Positions 5,064 through 25,943 of a stretch of DNA of 27,967 nucleotides are shown piece after piece. The stretch's first letter is position 1; every line of letters begins with the position of its first letter. The position numbers and the translations under genes are program-made. Source of the stretch: a virus (taxonomy: Duplodnaviria; Caudoviricetes); IMG/VR virus record IMGVR_UViG_3300006867_000070, positions 1 through 27,967 of that record. One strand, given 5' to 3'. The notes beneath the pieces are model-generated. The model did no database searches and was not told the DNA's origin. It saw only the letters and a list, made by a program, of their open reading frames with translations.

Positions 5064-5165
5064 ATGACAGTACCAACTAATACAGTTACAGAATTCGACC
5101 TCGGAACCGGCGGAGCAGATTCGACCCGTGAAGATTTGAGCGATATCATCTACAATATTGCGCCT
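5064..5165 (+). CDS. Major capsid protein, exon 1 (34 aa)
   Basis: SD GGAGG at 5052-56, ATG 5064; MTVPTNTVTEFDLGTGGADSTREDLSDIIYNIAP followed by TGA at the start of the intron; REDLSDIIYNIxP-TETPF is the N-terminal motif of DUF5309/SU10-type capsids. Confidence 0.92.
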
Positions 5166-5194
5166 TGATTTCTAGGGCCATTTTATGTAGTATC

Positions 5195-5209
5195 GTAGGC
5201 TATGCCTAC
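5195..5209 (+). promoter_or_regulatory. Hairpin GTAGGC-TAT-GCCTAC sequestering the HNH start codon
   Basis: 6-bp perfect stem covering AGG and ATG 5202-04. Confidence 0.55.
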
Positions 5210-5987
5210 ACAAGTACAATGCAAACAATGTGGGAAAGCTCAAGAAGTTATCCCAGCCAGAGCCAAGACTTATAAGTTTTGTTCTTATGAGTGCAGAGGC
5301 AAATGGCGAAAAGAAAACTGGACTGGAAAGAATCATCCAAACTGGAATGATGAGGCTAGAGCTAAATCATGCAAGGGTTGTGGTGGTGAATTCAGACAGA
5401 AAAAGACAGAGGCTATATCAACTTTCAGAAGTCGAAAGTTTTGCTCCAAGCCTTGTGCTGATAAGCATGGTTTTAGATATTCTGGATCGGATCATCCAAA
5501 TTGGAGAGAAGATTCCAGGCGAAAAAATCGTAGTGGTCAGCATAAGAAATGGAGAGATGCTGTAATAAGCAGAGATAAAGCCAAATGCTGTCATTGTGGT
5601 GAGAGTGATATTGAATTACACGCTCATCATATAAAATCATACAAAGATTATCCAGAATTGAGATTTGATGTCGATAATGGGTTGACTCTTTGTTACGTTT
5701 GTCATTGGAAAGTGCATACTGCGCAAAATGCAAACGGGGTGAATTCGGGGGAAGCCTCAGCACGTAAAGGTGGTGGTAATCCCGAGCCAAGCTTGAATGG
5801 AAACATTCTTGAAGGTGTAACGACTAGAGGACGAGCCTACAGGAGATGGGTAGGCAACTGTGATTACTGTGGCAAGGTGATCAGCAAAGCATTGAGCGAT
5901 GTTAAAGGTAAAAAACGTCATTATTGCAATAAAAGCTGTTCATCAAAAAACAGAATCAAGTTGTATGGCCCAATCAAACGGCAGTAA
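5202..5987 (+). CDS. Intron-encoded HNH homing endonuclease with Zn-finger repeats
   Basis: RD..CCHCG..HAHHI..DNGLTLCYVCHWKVH HNH core; three CxxC..(F/Y)CxxxC modules; two GxxHPNW repeats. Confidence 0.92.
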   Translation: MPTQVQCKQCGKAQEVIPARAKTYKFCSYECRGKWRKENWTGKNHPNWNDEARAKSCKGCGGEFRQKKTEAISTFRSRKFCSKPCADKHGFRYSGSDHPNWREDSRRKNRSGQHKKWRDAVISRDKAKCCHCGESDIELHAHHIKSYKDYPELRFDVDNGLTLCYVCHWKVHTAQNANGVNSGEASARKGGGNPEPSLNGNILEGVTTRGRAYRRWVGNCDYCGKVISKALSDVKGKKRHYCNKSCSSKNRIKLYGPIKRQ

Positions 5988-6085
5988 TTCCTCCAAGAGC
6001 GCCCTGGCCGAAAGGTATGATATAGTCTGAGCTGCAACGGAAACTTGCAGAAGCAGTAATTAAAAAAGCTGCGATAACAAAACTG

Positions 6086-6988
6086 ACAGAAACCCCATTC
6101 ATGACCTCGATCCCACGAGTTGGAGCTTCCCAGGTTTATCACGAATGGCAAACCGATACCCTAGACGATATCGGAACCAACCGAGCTATTGAGGGCGACG
6201 ACCCAACAGCTAAGACCTACAGCGCTTCTACTCGTGTGGGTAACTACTGCCAGATCTCGCAAAAAACCGTTAGTGTGTCGGGTACTGCAATCAAATCAAA
6301 CCATGCTGGCTTTGCTAGTGCGTTATCTTACCAAGTCGCTAAACGTGGTAAAGAGCTTAAGCGAGATATGGAGAGAGCGTTAGTATCTAACCAAGCCTCT
6401 AGTGCTGGCGGTGCTGGTACTGCTAGATCCTTGGCATCTGTAGAATCATGGCTATCTACTAACAAAACCTCTGAGGGTACTGGAACGGCTCAAACTACTC
6501 CAGGCTTTGCGAGTGGTACTGTAGCAGCTCCTACTGATTCAACCGTAGCAGGTACTTTCGAGAAGGTTCCACTAGATGCCATTATCCAAGAGATCTATGT
6601 AGAAGGTGGCGAGCCTACTGTGATTATGGTAGATCCTTTCAACCGTACTAAGATTTCAGGTTTTAGCGGTATCTCAACCCTTCAAACCGATGCCAACATG
6701 AATTCTGATGTTTCATTGATTGGAGCGGTGGACTTCTACAAATCAAACTTTGGTATCTTGAAGGTAGTTCCAAATAGGTTTATGCGTTCAGCCAAGTGGA
6801 GTGATTCAGTATCTACTGCGCTAATCCTAGACCTTGATTATTGGGCAGTTGCTTACCTTCGACCGTTCGAGCTTAATCCTCTGGCTAAGACTGGCGATAG
6901 TGAAAAACGTCAAATGCTGGCTGAATTTACGCTCGAATCTCGTAACGAGGCGGCATCGGGTAAAGTAACTGATTTGACAGTTTCATAG
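6086..6988 (+). CDS. Major capsid protein, exon 2 (spliced product 334 aa; DUF5309/SU10-like)
   Basis: Begins TETPFMTSI..HEWQTD; NYCQIS, ELKRDME and LAKTGDS..EFTLE motifs; the ORF-track start at 6101 is internal. Confidence 0.93.
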   Translation, partial: TETPFMTSIPRVGASQVYHEWQTDTLDDIGTNRAIEGDDPTAKTYSASTRVGNYCQISQKTVSVSGTAIKSNHAGFASALSYQVAKRGKELKRDMERALVSNQASSAGGAGTARSLASVESWLSTNKTSEGTGTAQTTPGFASGTVAAPTDSTVAGTFEKVPLDAIIQEIYVEGGEPTVIMVDPFNRTKISGFSGISTLQTDANMNSDVSLIGAVDFYKSNFGILKVVPNRFMRSAKWSDSVSTALILDLDYWAVAYLRPFELNPLAKTGDSEKRQMLAEFTLESRNEAASGKVTDLTVS

Positions 6989-7161: not shown

Positions 7162-7491
7162 ATGAGTAGGAAGCTTCTAGATTATGATCCATTAACAAGA
7201 ACGGCTGAATGGCATTTTTACGATGAGATGTCGAAGAAAACCTATATCAAGACTGTACAGGATGTAGAGCCAATCTTGGAGACTAACAAGAGGAAGCAGA
7301 ATTCTCTGAACACATCCCGTTTTACCAAAAAGGATGATATGTATCACTTTGCATCGGTTCCAAATTCTGTATTGTTGGAATGGAAGCAAAAATACAACAT
7401 AGACTGGAACAGAAAAGAGGATCTACCAAAGATCGAGAAGCTGTTAATGTCTAGTGAATATAAATATCTAAGGACTGTTGATAGGATATGA
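7162..7491 (+). CDS. Small protein downstream of the capsid gene (putative virion/head protein)
   Basis: QDVEPIL..NK and HFASVP..L.EW motifs resemble ORFs that follow this capsid type; ATG 7162 preferred to GTG 7150. Confidence 0.7.
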   Translation: MSRKLLDYDPLTRTAEWHFYDEMSKKTYIKTVQDVEPILETNKRKQNSLNTSRFTKKDDMYHFASVPNSVLLEWKQKYNIDWNRKEDLPKIEKLLMSSEYKYLRTVDRI

Positions 7492-8864
7492 TTGAAGACC
7501 TAAAACGAGCTAAAGGAATAGTCGATTCAGAACCCGACGAGGCTATGAGAATATGCTGCGAGGTGATGAACAAGGAGCTGGATTCGGATGTAGGCCAGAT
7601 GGCGTTATTCATGGCTGGTTACATCATGATGAATGCAGGTAGAACAGGCATTGCTTACCATATGTTTATGAGATGCGCTCAGTTAAAGCCTAATGAGCCT
7701 GAAATATACTCGAATATGGGTATGTGCTTGGAAGAGGATAAGCCAGAAGAGGCTGTTAAGCTGTTTAAGAAGGCTATGAAGCTGAAGCCTGGGAACGTTA
7801 CAGCAATGGCTAATCTTGCTTTGATGAACCTCCAAATGGGAAGGCCGGACGAATGCATAAACTTATGTAATCGAGTACTCAAAACTAATCCAGAATCGAG
7901 AGCAGCTCATCACAACAAAGGCTTAGCCAAGTTGATGAAACGAGACTTTAGCGGCTGGGATGAGTATTTTAAAACGTTAGGCGTTAAACATAGAGAGGCC
8001 AGATCTTACGGTTTGCCGGACTGGAACGGCGAAGAAGGAACGGTATTAGTCTATGGTGAGCAAGGTGTGGGTGATGAGATCATGTTCGCGTCATGCTTTG
8101 AAGACCTGCAAAAGACCAACAAGATCATATTTGACTGTGACAAAAGGCTTGAGTCAATATTCAAACGTAACTTTGATTTTGAGATTCATGGAACAAGATT
8201 CAGCGACAAGCCTATTGAGGTTTCAGAAACTCCAGACTACCAATGTGCTATAGGTCAATTACCCTACTTCTTTAGAAGAAATGAATCAGACTTCCCTGGC
8301 AAGCCTTACCTCAAGCCAGATCCAGAACGAGCCATTCAATGGGAATCAATACTAGAAAGAGGTCCGAGAATTGGCATAGCTTGGAATGGCGGCACTAAGG
8401 GCACTAGACAACAATACAGATCTACAGATTTAGAGCAGTTTAAACCCATCATAGATATGGACGCTCAGATAGTTAATCTCGAATATAAGCCTGTAGATGA
8501 CGATCAGATGAAGGAATACGGTATCACGAATTGGCCTAGAGCTGTTCTAAAAGGCTGTGATCTAGAAGATACTTTAGCATTAATCAGTAGATTGGATTGT
8601 GTTGTTACAGTTTGTACTACTGTTGTCTATTTAGCGGGGGCTCTTGGGATACCCTGTTATGTTATAGTTCCTGAATATTGCGGTTATAGATATCATAGTT
8701 TTGGCTCATCATTTCCGTGGTATAATAGCGTGAAGCTGTATAGAGGTGGTTTTAACAAATCAATCAGGGAGATTAAAACGGATGTTGAAAATATTCATCG
8801 GATACGACCCACGCGAGACCGTAGCTTACCATGTACTCTGTCACTCAATACTAAGGCAGGCTAG
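7488..8864 (+). CDS. TPR-repeat protein fused to a GT-B glycosyltransferase domain (GT9-like)
   Basis: TPR signatures (LKPNEPEIYSNMG, LKPGNVTAMANLA); EQGVGDEIMF, RIGIAWNG and LISRLDCVVTVCTTVVYLAGALG motifs. Confidence 0.85.
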   Translation: MIEDLKRAKGIVDSEPDEAMRICCEVMNKELDSDVGQMALFMAGYIMMNAGRTGIAYHMFMRCAQLKPNEPEIYSNMGMCLEEDKPEEAVKLFKKAMKLKPGNVTAMANLALMNLQMGRPDECINLCNRVLKTNPESRAAHHNKGLAKLMKRDFSGWDEYFKTLGVKHREARSYGLPDWNGEEGTVLVYGEQGVGDEIMFASCFEDLQKTNKIIFDCDKRLESIFKRNFDFEIHGTRFSDKPIEVSETPDYQCAIGQLPYFFRRNESDFPGKPYLKPDPERAIQWESILERGPRIGIAWNGGTKGTRQQYRSTDLEQFKPIIDMDAQIVNLEYKPVDDDQMKEYGITNWPRAVLKGCDLEDTLALISRLDCVVTVCTTVVYLAGALGIPCYVIVPEYCGYRYHSFGSSFPWYNSVKLYRGGFNKSIREIKTDVENIHRIRPTRDRSLPCTLSLNTKAG

Positions 8865-9444
8865 CGGGCCAGTTAGTTTTACACCCATCAATAAGCGCAA
8901 TATTCCAGAATTCACTAGAGGGATGGAAGATGGGTCTACAGAGTTCAGTTTTTCGCGGTTCCTCACTCCCTATCTAACAGGGTTCAGTGGCCAGGCATTA
9001 TTTATGGATTGTGACATGCTTGTTAGATGCGATATCTACGAGCTACTAGCCTACGGTACAATCAGTAGTGCCGTTAGTGTTGTACAGCATGATTACACAC
9101 CCAAACCAGATAAGAAATTCCTCGGCAATACCCAGCACATATACCCAAAAAAGAATTGGTCTAGCCTGATGTTGTTTAATTGCAGCCATACAGACTGTTT
9201 TAACCTTCATGCATACAAGATTAACCACTGTACAGGTAAATATTTACATCAATTTGAATGGGCGCAGGATGGAGTTGGAGCTATACCTCTAGACTACAAT
9301 CATTTAGTGGGAGAATATGACCCCAATCCAGACGCTAAAATAGCCCATTTCACACTAGGTACGCCATGTTTCAAGGGATACGAGAGTCAAGAGTTTGCTG
9401 ACGAATGGTTCGCTGAAAGGGAAATGATGCTACATGCAGACTAA
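8782..9444 (+). CDS. GT-A glycosyltransferase (GT8-like, CDI-type)
   Basis: IFIGYD, STEFSFSRF, DxD motif (FMDCDML), KNWSSLML, HFTLGTP; SD GGGAG at 8767-71 before ATG 8782. Confidence 0.88.
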   Translation: MLKIFIGYDPRETVAYHVLCHSILRQASGPVSFTPINKRNIPEFTRGMEDGSTEFSFSRFLTPYLTGFSGQALFMDCDMLVRCDIYELLAYGTISSAVSVVQHDYTPKPDKKFLGNTQHIYPKKNWSSLMLFNCSHTDCFNLHAYKINHCTGKYLHQFEWAQDGVGAIPLDYNHLVGEYDPNPDAKIAHFTLGTPCFKGYESQEFADEWFAEREMMLHAD

Positions 9445-10252
9445 TCCTAGCATTAACTTCTTTGGGCCAAATGAAGAGATAGCATCGGGAAGATACCGCA
9501 ACATAATGCCGTTTAACTGGCTAAAGGATAATGGGTGGGAAGTAGGCAACGATGTGCTAGTGACCATGAAGCATAGATGGCCATTCAACCCTTTAGAACC
9601 ATACTCTAAATATATATTTGACGTATGCGACGATCATTTCGATACAATGTTTAGAGAGCATTATCTAAAACACTGTAACGAATCCAACCTTGTCACCTGC
9701 AATTCGGAAGAGATGTCTAGAATCATCAAGGAACGGACCGGAAGAGAGGCTCAAATAATACCTGATCCTATCGAATACGACACACAGCCAGCACACTATA
9801 AAGATAGATTCCTGACGTTTGGCAATGAGTGGAATATTGCATTGTTGCGCAATGTACCGAACCTATTAAAAGCCCTAAACGGTAGATCGTTAGATATTAT
9901 TTCTAAGCCTGTAGAACCCTCAATTATTCCTTGGAGCCGTGAGGCAATGATAGAAGGGTTTAAACGTGCTGGAGCTGTTATTATTCCAGTAGGTAATAAG
10001 ATAGCTAAGAGCGCTAATCGGTTGTTGGAATCAATTAATGCGGGATGTTTTGTAATAGCTAACAGCATGCCAGCCTATGACGAATTCAAGGATTTTTCGT
10101 GGATTGGTGATATCGCTCAAGGTATAGACTGGTATTTAAACAACAAGGAAGAGGCTCTAATTAAGGTAGAAGCAGGTCAGAGGTATATACTCGACCGCTA
10201 CACTATCGACAAGGTAGGGCCGATGTGGGAGAAAGCAATTGGGTCATGTTAA
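9434..10252 (+). CDS. Putative GT-B (GT4-like) glycosyltransferase
   Basis: FDVCDDHF, VTCNS, IIPDP, KSANRLLESINAGCFVIA and a C-terminal YILDRYT helix. Confidence 0.7.
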   Translation: MQTNPSINFFGPNEEIASGRYRNIMPFNWLKDNGWEVGNDVLVTMKHRWPFNPLEPYSKYIFDVCDDHFDTMFREHYLKHCNESNLVTCNSEEMSRIIKERTGREAQIIPDPIEYDTQPAHYKDRFLTFGNEWNIALLRNVPNLLKALNGRSLDIISKPVEPSIIPWSREAMIEGFKRAGAVIIPVGNKIAKSANRLLESINAGCFVIANSMPAYDEFKDFSWIGDIAQGIDWYLNNKEEALIKVEAGQRYILDRYTIDKVGPMWEKAIGSC

Positions 10253-10823
10253 TCAGAGGATCTTTTTAGAACGGATGGGAGGCCAGCTACACGGGCCTGT
10301 ATTAGAGGTTGGCAGCAAAGACTACGGAAACACACAGGACTTTAGATCTTTAGTCAGCGGTGAATACGTTGGTTTAGATTTGGAGGACGGTAAAGGCGTT
10401 GACGTAGTACATGATCTATCAGACGGAGTTGGACCACTCAAAAAAGGCCATTTTAATCTGATTATATGCTGTTCGATCTTAGAGCATGTAAAGAACCCCT
10501 GGATAGTTGCTGAAACATTAATGGATCTACTGAGCGATAACGGAAAGATCTACATTTCTACTCCGTGGATTCAACGTTACCATAAATATCCAGACGATTA
10601 TTGGCGGTTCACTCTTCCAGCGCTTAAACTGTTATTTAATAGATTAGAGTTAACCAAGCCATATCTAAGCACCTTCACAGCTGGCGAGTTCATGGATCTT
10701 GAAACATATCCAGACTGCGACAACTCACTTGCAATAATGCACGATGGCAGAAAGTACCTACCTTGCTACGAATTACACACTATTGGGCTGAATAATGGCA
10801 ATAAACACATACGCGAACCTTAA
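10239..10823 (+). CDS. Class I SAM-dependent methyltransferase
   Basis: VLEVGS, YVGLD..GVDVVHD, SILEHVKNP, H.YPDDYWRF; TTG start with SD GGGAG. Confidence 0.88.
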   Translation: MGHVNQRIFLERMGGQLHGPVLEVGSKDYGNTQDFRSLVSGEYVGLDLEDGKGVDVVHDLSDGVGPLKKGHFNLIICCSILEHVKNPWIVAETLMDLLSDNGKIYISTPWIQRYHKYPDDYWRFTLPALKLLFNRLELTKPYLSTFTAGEFMDLETYPDCDNSLAIMHDGRKYLPCYELHTIGLNNGNKHIREP

Positions 10824-11409
10824 AACAGCAATTGAGGCTTGGTCACATAGAACAGATATTTCTAATGTGATAGATAACTTCATAGAGCTAGCAGAGAATG
10901 AGATAGACAAGCGATTAATGCTCAGAAATAACGAGTTGAGAGCTATTGCAACCATGTCCACCTCAGAGCGATTCTTGGCGCTTCCTGACCGTTTTTTGAA
11001 GATGCGTAGGCTTACATTAGTAAACGGCACATTGAACTACGAGATAGCCTATAGAAGCCCTGAATCAATGCCTGTGCAAGATAGCGCAGGCAGGCCAAAA
11101 TACTTCACTGTAACATCACAACTTGAGTTCGATAGAACAGCAGACTCAGCCTATACACTGGAAATGAGCTACTTTTCTAGGATCGTACCTCTAACCTCTT
11201 CCAACACATCAAACGACACGCTCACAGATTACCCTGATTTGTACCTGTGGGGATGCCTTGTTCAGCTCGCATTGTGGGAGCAAGATTTTGACAAAGCGAA
11301 TATTTATCAGGGCAAATTTGATAGATCCATTGAAGAGGCTAACAAGCAGGAAAGAAAAGGTCGGTATGGTACAGCACCACGCATGATGAAAGAAGGATCT
11401 ACCCCATAA
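10795..11409 (+). CDS. Head-tail adaptor / tail tubular protein A-like
   Basis: TYANLKTAI..W..RTD..FIELAE and YPDLYLWGCL motifs; position before the gp10-like gene. Confidence 0.8.
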   Translation: MAINTYANLKTAIEAWSHRTDISNVIDNFIELAENEIDKRLMLRNNELRAIATMSTSERFLALPDRFLKMRRLTLVNGTLNYEIAYRSPESMPVQDSAGRPKYFTVTSQLEFDRTADSAYTLEMSYFSRIVPLTSSNTSNDTLTDYPDLYLWGCLVQLALWEQDFDKANIYQGKFDRSIEEANKQERKGRYGTAPRMMKEGSTP

Positions 11410-12842
11410 TGTATAAAACGATTCCTGTACAAGTTGTGGGTGGCTCGAATCCATCAAGGTCAAAGGCAGTATCGCAAGAAAGAACTTTAAACCTTTATCC
11501 TGAATCAGTGCCTTCTGGATCGCATCCTTCTACCCTCTACCCGTGGCCAGGCTCAACTCAATTTAGTGATGGCACAGGATCAGGCGCGTCTAGAGGTATC
11601 TACACACACGAACGAACGGGAGTAGTTTACAAGATAGCAGACACTACGCTCTATTCTATGGATTCTAACGGGGTAGAAACATCAATAGGAACGATAGCTG
11701 GAAGCGGTTTAGTAATATTTGAGTCTCTTTATGACAATATAGTCAATATAGGAACGAAGCTTTTAATAACTTCTAACACTAAAGGCTATGTTTATGATGT
11801 TGACTCAGGTAGTCTAACAGAGGTGACGGATGCTTCATATGTTGCGGGCGGTTCTGTAGTCGCTATTAATTCGTTCGCAATATGGCAGCTAGATAAAAAC
11901 CGTTACGCGGTGGGTGATGTTGGTGATCCTGCATCTATTCAGGCGGAAAATATCAGTACAACCATAACATATGGCGACGATTTAGTCAGGATCTTTAAAT
12001 ACAAAGAAACAATATACATGATGGGTTCTGTTGGTGTAGAGCCATATTATATAGGTTCATCCGGCACTAATCCTTTAGTTTCAATTCAAAATAGTTCAAT
12101 GCCTGTTGGGTTAATAGATCGTGGTTGTGTAGACTCTAATGATTATGCAATGTATTGGATTGGCAGCGATAAGATCCTATACAGAGCTACAGCATACCAA
12201 CAACAGAGCGTCACAACTCCATCAATAGCTGGCGCATTCTTTGATCTAGACTTTACTGGGTCTAGAGTAAAATGTATAAAGTTTGCTGGTCAAAACTTTG
12301 TAATGGTCCTGACTAACTCTAAAAGCTGGGTTTACTGCGAGACAACTAACCTATGGATTGAACTCGCCTACACTGCCAACGAATACCCCTATCTTGCCTA
12401 CGATTATACCTACGCTTACGGAACCCACTACATCCAGTCTAGACTTGATTCTAGAGTATTAAAACTAGATCCTAACGTCTATACTGATAACAACCAAACG
12501 ACGATTAGAGAGCGTGTTACGGCGCCTATAAACGGCGGTCAGCTTGGCTTGGAGGGTGGGCGTTTTACGGTAAAGCGCGCTGAGATAGTTTGCGCGAGTG
12601 GCATAGGGAATTTGAGTGAAGCAAATCCATTAATTATGATCAGCAATTCCATAGACTTCGGCCAATCGTTTTCTAATGAGTCTTGGATTCGAGCAGGAAG
12701 AGATGATGAGAACAATCTGAGGGTTGAATACGATTTCATAAGATCATGCAGGCAAATACAATTCAAAATAAGAACCTCAGACCCAAACTTTTTTAACTTT
12801 CAATCATTCGCTATTGATGTTCAGCGAGGTGGCCAGTTTTGA
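11409..12842 (+). CDS. Packaged DNA stabilisation protein / tail nozzle (P22 gp10-like)
   Basis: 477 aa beta-rich protein; NLYPE, PG..F, YD/YC..T..W and S.DFG.SFS motifs. Confidence 0.82.
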   Translation: MYKTIPVQVVGGSNPSRSKAVSQERTLNLYPESVPSGSHPSTLYPWPGSTQFSDGTGSGASRGIYTHERTGVVYKIADTTLYSMDSNGVETSIGTIAGSGLVIFESLYDNIVNIGTKLLITSNTKGYVYDVDSGSLTEVTDASYVAGGSVVAINSFAIWQLDKNRYAVGDVGDPASIQAENISTTITYGDDLVRIFKYKETIYMMGSVGVEPYYIGSSGTNPLVSIQNSSMPVGLIDRGCVDSNDYAMYWIGSDKILYRATAYQQQSVTTPSIAGAFFDLDFTGSRVKCIKFAGQNFVMVLTNSKSWVYCETTNLWIELAYTANEYPYLAYDYTYAYGTHYIQSRLDSRVLKLDPNVYTDNNQTTIRERVTAPINGGQLGLEGGRFTVKRAEIVCASGIGNLSEANPLIMISNSIDFGQSFSNESWIRAGRDDENNLRVEYDFIRSCRQIQFKIRTSDPNFFNFQSFAIDVQRGGQF

Positions 12843-25056: not shown

Positions 25057-25299
25057 TTAAAATGGCATATCGTCGTCAAAAGCTTCCTGCTTGTTGCTCT
25101 CCTTTGTCCCATATCCTCCTTCTTGCTTCTCCTTAAATGATAATGACATATACTTCACGCCATTCTTGCTCTCGTTAAGCCATGATGAAATGTAATACTC
25201 AACTCCATCAATCATAGCCTGCCCTTTGTAATCTGGATGTGTATCCTTCTCCTTCTCCTTGTTTCTGAATAATGCTCCACTATTGTCTTTCTGGTTCAT
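25057..25299 (-). CDS. Small ssDNA-binding-like protein (DUF736-like)
   Basis: NSGALF.N..K....PDYKG..I.G.EY..S.W motif; acidic SSB-type tail FDDDMPF. Confidence 0.75.
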   Translation of the reverse strand: MNQKDNSGALFRNKEKEKDTHPDYKGQAMIDGVEYYISSWLNESKNGVKYMSLSFKEKQEGGYGTKESNKQEAFDDDMPF

Positions 25300-25943
25300 G
25301 CTGTCACCTCATAATCGTATGTTTCGATAATTTGCGTATAGTCCTCAACTAACTTAAAAAACTTCTCTTCTCTCCTTTGTAGTCTCTCCACTTCCTCCTT
25401 CACTTGGTTAATGTGTAGCCTGCATATAAACAGGCGCTTGTCTTCTGGAAACTCTGCGCAGTAGCTAACGAAGTCGATCCATTGTCTGCCAGTGTGGTAC
25501 ATGTTGCCAATAATCTGCCATTTATAGGCAGGGTCATACGATTGACGCTTCAGGTTGGTAAGATGAACGTTAGCTATTACCGACTTAATCTCGATCAATC
25601 CATCATCTCCCACTAAACCATCGGGGCTACAACCAACCAGGCCACAGTCAAAGAATCCGCCGTTTGTTACTTCTGAGAATGTTCGGTCTTCATAAGCCAT
25701 TCGCGCTACAGGCTCTTGTTCGTGGCCTCTTTCCATATGATCATTCGAGTAAGAAGATCCAGCAGGGCGGCCTGTGATGCGTTCTACAGCTATTGTCATG
25801 GCTAGCTTCTTAGCTGGTTCGCCGAAAGCCTTACCATCATTCGCCATGATCTTACCGAAGCTGGAGCCTGTTAGCTTGCCAGCCCTCAGTAAATACCATT
25901 CGTCGCTATTCTGTTCAACGTTGTGAAATTGCATTATTGACAT
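25296..25943 (-). CDS. YqaJ / lambda exonuclease family protein
   Basis: QNSDEW..LR.G.LTGS, RGHEQEP.AR, GCSPDGL, IEIK and Y.WQ motifs. Confidence 0.93.
   Translation of the reverse strand: MSIMQFHNVEQNSDEWYLLRAGKLTGSSFGKIMANDGKAFGEPAKKLAMTIAVERITGRPAGSSYSNDHMERGHEQEPVARMAYEDRTFSEVTNGGFFDCGLVGCSPDGLVGDDGLIEIKSVIANVHLTNLKRQSYDPAYKWQIIGNMYHTGRQWIDFVSYCAEFPEDKRLFICRLHINQVKEEVERLQRREEKFFKLVEDYTQIIETYDYEVTA

Follow-up and report, generated by a model that had tools for sequence, protein, structure and literature searches.

The DNA analysed here, which we call the window, is a 27,967-nt stretch: a linear virus record carrying genes for a terminase, an SU10-type portal, a protein in the scaffold position and an SU10-type major capsid protein. 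The portal matches the SU10_portal profile with E 2e-170; the terminase profile match is weak. The capsid gene is split. Its frame, running from 5064, halts after codon 34 and picks up again at 6086, and exon 1 terminates in an in-frame stop at the splice site. Exon 2 matches PF17236 from profile position 24 on and, with the portal and terminase upstream, this match identifies the host gene as an SU10-type capsid gene. Of 313 phage records that match exon 2, 281 cover at least 80% of it. Pelagibacter phage HTVC106P has an intronless head protein, whose sequence over the exon junction is DLADIIYSIAP-TETPFM. Joining the two exons restores IAP-TETPF as in this protein, which places the intron bounds at 5166 and 6085 (Table 1). 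Immediately 3' of the capsid gene lie a TPR-containing glycosyltransferase-like gene and its neighbours (7488-12842). A YqaJ-like viral recombinase on the minus strand (25296-25943, E 1e-19) could serve homing repair.

Table 1. Features of the interrupted capsid gene, with positions in the window
Feature	Position	Strand	Remarks
Major capsid protein exon 1	5064-5165	+	34 codons, translation ends ...YNIAP, last base U
Predicted group I intron	5166-6085	+	920 nt; U before 5' site, G at 3' end; splicing predicted
P1	5162-5178	+	U5165.G5175 at 5' splice site
P10 candidate	5169-73 with exon 2 6088-92	+	read from sequence
P2 5' strand	5179-5193	+	pairing
Promoter-like TAGTAT with TTGATT	5188-93 and 5165-70	+	TTGATT 17 nt upstream; weak, 8/12; hexamer survey
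Endonuclease ORF	5202-5987	+	261 aa: Zn1, Zn2, HNH, core-coded linker, Zn3
Zn modules 1 and 2	5220-5456	+	C7/10/27/31 and C57/60/81/85; P2 loop; zf-FCS
HNH domain	5586-5717	+	C129, C132, H142, H143, N159, C164, C167, H168, H172
P2 3' strand	5716-5730	+	doubles as codons 172-177
Core 5' part, translated as protein	5735-5837	+	codons 179-212
P3 5'	5735-41	+	core 5' part
P4	5744-49/5781-86	+	core 5' part
P5/P5a	5755-76	+	core 5' part
P6/P6a	5787-5815	+	core 5' part
P7 5'	5822-26	+	core 5' part
P7.1	5827-31 (GAGGA)/5989-93 (UCCUC)	+	pairing
P7.1a	5835-37 (GCC)/5980-82 (GGC)	+	46-47 of 47 paired
P7.1a loop	5838-5979	+	codes third Zn module
Ribozyme 3' part	5980-6085	+	P7.1a 3' to terminal G 6085
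ORF stop codon	5985-87	+	within ribozyme 3' part
P3 3'	6000-06	+	ribozyme 3' part
P8	6007-16	+	ribozyme 3' part
P7 3'	6023-27	+	ribozyme 3' part
P9	6032-50	+	ribozyme 3' part
Major capsid protein exon 2	6086-6988	+	300 codons, TETPF at start; SU10_MCP PF17236, E 1e-81

The predicted intron and its three-part protein

The 920 nt between the exons are likely a mobile group I intron, predicted from its sequence to be self-splicing. It has a U.G pair in P1, the terminal G6085, a core built on the P3-P7 pseudoknot, P4-P6, P8 and P9. Rfam model RF00028 matches 5674-6050 with 40.4 bits (E 1.3e-8), short of the gathering score of 50. A scan of the window at the gathering threshold accordingly returned no match, and the intron surfaced only by E-value; two relatives, L083 and L294, score 51.6 bits. 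Between P7 and the 3' strand of P3 lies a P7.1 with an internal loop, followed by P7.1a. P7.1 is a mark of subgroup IA introns.

Comparison with 47 family introns bears out the fold. The U.G pair at the 5' splice site is found in 47/47, the remaining P1 pairs in 43-46 with compensatory types, and the pairs of the core helices (the P3-P7 pseudoknot, P4-P6, P8, P9) are maintained in 40-47. Compensatory changes occur in P1, P2, P3, P4, P5, P6a, P7.1, P8 and P9, and RNAalifold finds two-sided change in 10 of 26 pairs; P7 is invariant and was partly fixed by the DNA search pattern that collected the family.

A single ORF begins in the P2 loop, reads P3 through P7.1 and places its final module in the P7.1a loop. 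The sequence-only reading of this DNA had ended the HNH domain at the 3' strand of P2, and the codon of His172 (5715-17) does overlap 5716-30. It had the frame open from P3 to the 5' strand of P7, as it is over 261 codons, and the linker peptide, the two strands of P7.1 and the third-module Cys codons (5859, 5868, 5925, 5937) lie where it had put them. It had assigned the third module to the extension closed by P7.1; the module is inside, more precisely in the sub-loop closed by P7.1a. The frame crosses the entire P7 5' strand, the P7.1 5' strand and both sides of P7.1a.

What kind of protein is this? PF01844 covers residues 129-172 with E 1e-4 and 22.7 bits, against a cut-off of 21.4. H142, H143, H168 and H172 are present in 121/121 aligned proteins and N159 in 120/121; together with the CxxC pairs, these features make the domain an HNH endonuclease. 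From its location in an intron and from the one insertion region shared by the family, we infer that it is a homing endonuclease. The third module has the pattern CxxC-x18-CxxxC (C220, C223, C242, C246). Scored within the whole protein, residues 219-248 match zf-FCS PF06467 above the cut-off (E 3e-5); alone, the module matches PF06467 with E 6e-4 and archaeal TRASH with E 1.6e-3, both under the curated cut-offs. Judged by sequence, it is likely a four-Cys module of treble-clef and zinc-binding type. Its separate translation is ruled out, the window's loop holding no in-frame ATG.

A structure model built from 116 sequences (mean pLDDT 81, pTM 0.51) is confident within the modules. Residues 175-199 are disordered. 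A strand at 202-206 (block pLDDT about 59) precedes strands 212-219 and 226-230, and pLDDT is 80-91 over residues 211-260. The protein of the intron-less locus L086 has, after an 8-residue link, the order strand, strand, strand, helix, helix, as in the window; since the strand order matches, the end of the core-coded stretch (202-206) is predicted to belong to the third domain. The HNH model aligns with the GVE2 HNH structure 5h0o over 85 residues (Z 8.5, rmsd 4.0). Foldseek against the PDB gave no match at E 0.001, and a wider structure search mainly covered residues 104-180.

Conservation of the frame and of the third module

The window ORF matches 557 protein clusters. The best 120 of these 557 have 52-84% identity over 80-100% of the query, and C220, C223, C242 and C246 are kept in 121/121 aligned proteins. 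Because that list favours full-length matches, we also searched with residues 1-172 alone, over a length range that admitted proteins ending right after the HNH domain. Of the 112 matches, 91 reached at least 107 bits, and the remaining 21 are distant HNH proteins. None of these 91 close matches stops after the HNH domain: 89 have the core peptide and the module, and two have the module without the core. The four-Cys module is likewise present in 185 of 187 stored proteins that bear the core peptide.

At the DNA level, a core pattern that made no requirement for an open frame and allowed a gap of 10-35 nt found 58 metagenome and 30 viral matches. The gap was 21 nt in 88/88, and these 88 independent contig matches rule out an assembly artefact. 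With L083 added, they amount to 65 distinct cores, one of which belongs to the lineage of the window. All 65 are open through the core in the ORF frame and 63 have an intact module, counts that overstate independence because the sequences are related, although synonymous sites outside the core are near saturation. The exceptions are L221, frame-shifted inside the module, and L294, which has lost it. Homologs checked for stops in the core or lost cysteines have thus kept both frame and Cys residues, and the earlier proposal of coherent domains in two loops is borne out, with one conserved frame.

Could an open frame be a by-product of a conserved ribozyme? In the family, 63/63 scorable cores are open in the ORF frame, with both remaining frames closed. 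The control, 87 phage cores from outside the family that share the Q-R motif, has 9 open in the ORF frame and 24 in any. P5 length points the same way. Its values in the family are 40 (57 cores), 46 (5 cores) and 37 (1 core), each of which keeps the frame; only 17 of the 87 control cores fall in that in-frame class. Over codons 173-212 of 57 sequences, about 11 stops would be expected from column frequencies and none is seen. Frame shifts inside the core do occur in a few proteins (P0265, P0274, P0283).

Substitutions separate the two pressures. In 19 disjoint pairs drawn from 55 ORFs chosen as intact, pN/pS is 0.35 for Zn1, 0.34 for Zn2, 0.23 for HNH, 0.94 for the core and 0.35 for Zn3. From its ratio of 0.35 (pS 0.66, pN 0.23), the third module is conserved as protein on a par with Zn1 and Zn2. 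Its invariant cysteines use both Cys codons, and Ser228 is kept through AGC and TCN codons. In the core, pS is 0.11, a low value that is partly built in because the DNA pattern fixed Q, R and some P7.1 letters. The P4 pair 5749-5781 changes from G-C to U-A in 11/47; G183V and P194T co-vary because both codons share this one base pair. By these patterns, core residues follow RNA pairing and protein selection maintains the frame and not the residues: the RNA sets the letters, the protein the frame. The suggestion that selection acts on both RNA fold and protein is thus upheld for the compensatory pairs and for Zn3; in the core itself it extends to the frame only. Selection for the third module would be what holds the frame open across the core.

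All 47 introns with a readable 5' junction interrupt one and the same capsid gene. They use two insertion sites separated by a single codon (3 nt), one after Pro and one after Pro-Thr, and the guide sequence changes to match. In seven introns (L216, L237, L247, L272, L279, L282, L294) the nuclease is partly or wholly deleted in the P2 loop, which is the usual decay of homing genes. One of them, L294 (minus strand, core about 1908-2137), is a complete intron of 276 nt without an ORF, both coding loops deleted. Its core is 98.5% identical to that of the intact L277; it is a natural minimal ribozyme. Searching 50,697 phage records with the intron by blastn gave 10 short matches, none covering 80%, and hence no cultured phage with the intron among these records. 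A search of sequencing runs listed no RNA dataset that contains it. Family ORFs carry McrA-like or hypothetical labels, and the intron scores under the Rfam cut-off, which concerns annotators. What emerges is a widespread and conserved form of mobile group I intron, whose reading frame is locked through the ribozyme core by selection on the domain that follows it.

Expression, history and function

How could one RNA be both folded and translated? Forty introns have a usable start; 27 have leaders extending at least 18 nt past the P2 5' strand and 13 have short ones. In 23 of the 27 long-leader introns (for example L223, L233, L251, L259, L287) the Shine-Dalgarno sequence and start are buried in a hairpin (mean -12.8 kcal/mol). 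A TATAAT-like hexamer with T at the last place lies just upstream in 24/27. In a transcript beginning about 7 nt past the hexamer the hairpin is lost (mean -2.6 kcal/mol), although four still reach -5 kcal/mol or lower. No Shine-Dalgarno sequence is present in the 13 introns with short leaders, among them the window with its 8 nt, and these could be leaderless. Leader class tracks insertion site. In the window, the TAGTAT hexamer also pairs with the His172-Thr173 codons in P2, and a promoter scan did not list the site at 5188-93. Because the match is weak and overlaps P2, we treat an internal promoter there as a candidate. The arrangement recalls the T4 td intron, in which a hairpin burying the ribosome-binding site and an internal promoter protect splicing, and opening the hairpin lowers it (PMC2988022).

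We consider it probable that an HNH gene open from the P2 loop to the P7.1a loop, across the predicted catalytic core, yields one protein from one of two transcripts, its nuclease flanked on either side by zinc modules that likely bind DNA. RNA pairing would set the core letters, and the protein would tolerate residues 175-199 as a mostly disordered spacer, with the third domain predicted to begin with a strand made of the last core-coded residues, 202-206. Folding and translation conflict, and the two transcripts would likely resolve this. In the capsid pre-mRNA, the nuclease start would be hidden or lack a ribosome-binding site, and the intron would splice; a transcript from the internal promoter, without P1 and the P2 5' strand, could not splice and would be translated. 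Splicing, homing, DNA binding by Zn3 and the internal promoter are steps that we infer. One stretch would then likely serve both as RNA enzyme and as protein part. This bears on the sharing of one sequence between ribosomes and splicing in a capsid gene that is highly expressed, and on whether ribozymes can be a source of new protein sequence. With its natural deletions and intron-less relatives, the family offers a test system for the evolution of overlapping codes for RNA structure and protein.

The three-part protein also exists outside introns. Four bacterial genome loci (L084, L085, L086, L088) have the same gene with no intron motif, no Rfam match and no capsid gene nearby. Their free-standing Zn-Zn-HNH-Zn proteins share the modules and their order with the window protein, with 31-45% identity within alignment A2/A6, and the third domain has the same secondary structure by prediction; they differ in a shorter linker and often an N-terminal extension. 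The relative at L088:2002-3699 lies in a Pelagibacter chromosome near a weak tmRNA match and is perhaps part of an integrated element. A profile search gave 116 scorable proteins; 32 have a module after the HNH domain without the core motif, although in a few of them the core is variant or broken, and 26 have the core. Most core-less linkers are 25-34 residues long, and the core-less proteins are more diverse than the intron-borne ones.

That the Zn finger was gained in a second loop, as the sequence-only reading had it, is hence one of two histories, since intron-less relatives have the same protein; the module is where it was said to be, and its gain is the part in question. The first history, towards which we lean, begins with core creep out of P2; a Zn module is then captured within the P7.1a loop, and escapes from the intron follow later. 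Its reverse starts from a free-standing three-module nuclease whose short linker was replaced by the ribozyme core, the function being that of our main explanation. The reverse order would suit the diversity of the core-less proteins, the intron-less bacterial loci, a core-less clade on a long, fully supported branch and a helix-turn-helix-like N-terminal extension found in 17/27 core-less rows against 1/28 core rows; as a shared feature, the extension suggests common descent of the free forms, or recombination. We nevertheless think it unlikely. It requires two in-frame insertions. A core that is read through but has no module behind it is a frequent starting state (14/107 phage cores, see below). 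Core-like letters are also retained in core-less linkers (EGVTKEGRAFRRW in P0277, EGVIKGR in P0187, and P0272, in which P3-P5 are deleted), and they derive from an RNA motif common to about 700 stored viral stretches, a sequence trace that speaks for escape from the intron. A tree built without the linker, from 28 core and 27 core-less rows, interleaves the two kinds: the core label changes 7-9 times, at least three changes are forced by starred branches, and a single change is found in 0/200 bootstrap trees. An AU test holding the core rows in one clade gave a borderline p of 0.048, and the tree does not settle the history; an earlier tree on 125 columns was mostly unresolved. A mixture of both routes is improbable.

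Three sequences known as proteins only (P0346, P0256, P0270) have an HNH-core-Zn layout with different P4/P7-type letters. The third module of P0346 resembles module 1, possibly an independent origin; a DNA search found no locus spanning this protein. A bolder reading, which we offer tentatively and rather doubt, makes the core an obligatory coding part of a folded enzyme, supplying spacer and first strand of a domain the nuclease requires. The layout would have arisen more than once (P0346), and genes leaving introns would have seeded free-standing bacterial nucleases with eroded-ribozyme linkers. If true, it would mean protein sequence born from catalytic RNA.

What does the third module do? 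By analogy, and from its retention in intron-less forms, its role is most likely DNA binding. A Mantel test of Zn3 against exon-flank distances gave rho about 0 (p 0.5, n 32). Since the distances do not track each other, sequence-specific reading of the exons by Zn3 is without support, and the module may instead hold an invariant part of the site or the DNA backbone. Zn1/Zn2 distances follow those of exon 1 with p 0.02, uncorrected, among 10 tests. The module might otherwise serve the intron RNA, as a maturase or cis-acting folding aid. Treble-clef/TRASH-type folds do occur in RNA-binding proteins, and distances that do not follow exon sequence would fit such a role. I-AniI is a maturase (PMC1995217). 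This is nonetheless quite improbable, given that the module, with its S-K-R-x-S-D surface motif, persists in intron-less relatives and that L294, which lacks both protein parts, is still a complete intron. The module's retention where no intron exists suggests that it acts in the nuclease and not in splicing.

Ordinary core creep, in which read-through and module would be an unselected run-on or the decaying relic of a second nuclease, is a described process (PMC3073962) and would fit the core's pN/pS near 1 and the tail past the module, but it can hardly account for a module intact in 63/65 that lacks an ATG of its own, has pS far above pN and keeps its cysteines and Ser228 through alternative codons.

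Read-through in other introns

Core creep has been described with a product held to be dispensable and variable in length, and with overlaps of 9-81 nt between ORF and core (PMC3073962). As far as that account extends, its variable, dispensable extension differs from what we find, namely a fixed frame, near-fixed length and purifying selection; the prediction of a harmless run-on is broken in hundreds of sequences. Only the tail past the module fits it: 31/60 run on via P3', P8 and P7' and stop just after P7', and 17/60 stop like the window or one base off (-34/-35, two frames). This tail is ordinary core creep.

The layout had been called unusual, and this needs dividing. In a second class of phage cores, 14/107 have a long ORF that enters before P4 and passes P7, and 10 of these 14 ORFs are HNH-like. 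Whole-core read-through is therefore not rare in phage introns. In none of the 14 is the core followed by a module; the conserved module that follows it in the window's family is the unusual part. Among the papers that our literature searches brought up, none describes domains on both sides of a translated core; supplementary intron tables (PMC11835236, PMC11878797) could hold members.

Several known systems share parts of the arrangement. T4 td/I-TevI is also a phage group I intron whose nuclease ORF enters core helices (PMC3073962), with an overlap of 20 nt; in the window the overlap spans about 120 nt of P2-P7.1a, its frame is fixed, and a conserved domain follows. In the L1917 intron of Synechococcus sp. 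C9 an ORF that starts in a loop crosses P7, P3 and P8, overlapping from P6 to P9, and double selective pressure was noted (PMC1995217). Unlike the window ORF, it is a LAGLIDADG gene in an rRNA gene that uses one loop and ends in P9, with no second domain reported in the part of that source consulted. Capsid genes split by group I-type introns with nuclease ORFs are found in LittleE (PMC3706429), where splicing was demonstrated, and in crAss-like Delta/Zeta phages (PMC7886860). The LittleE ORF lies on the opposite strand, unlike ours; both systems belong to different capsid families, and the excerpts of these two papers describe no core read-through. Fungal mitochondrial introns also show core creep (PMC8393795). 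There the extension serves expression. The window ORF, by contrast, has its own start and folded modules on either side of the core, and an in-frame stop closes exon 1 at the splice site.

Other phage introns show further forms. Nine (L100, L481, L559, L455, L465, L477, L501, L505, L514) have LAGLIDADG-like or HNH read-through ORFs that stop near P3'/P7' and add no extra domain. L011 has a related HNH in P2 with a stop at P3/P4. In L025, L030, L038 and L071, related Zn-HNH ORFs stop before the Q element is reached, apparently within a loop of the P5 region. In L134 and L499 a single open frame spans the entire intron core, continuing in L134 into a capsid-like downstream exon; unspliced transcripts may give read-through products.
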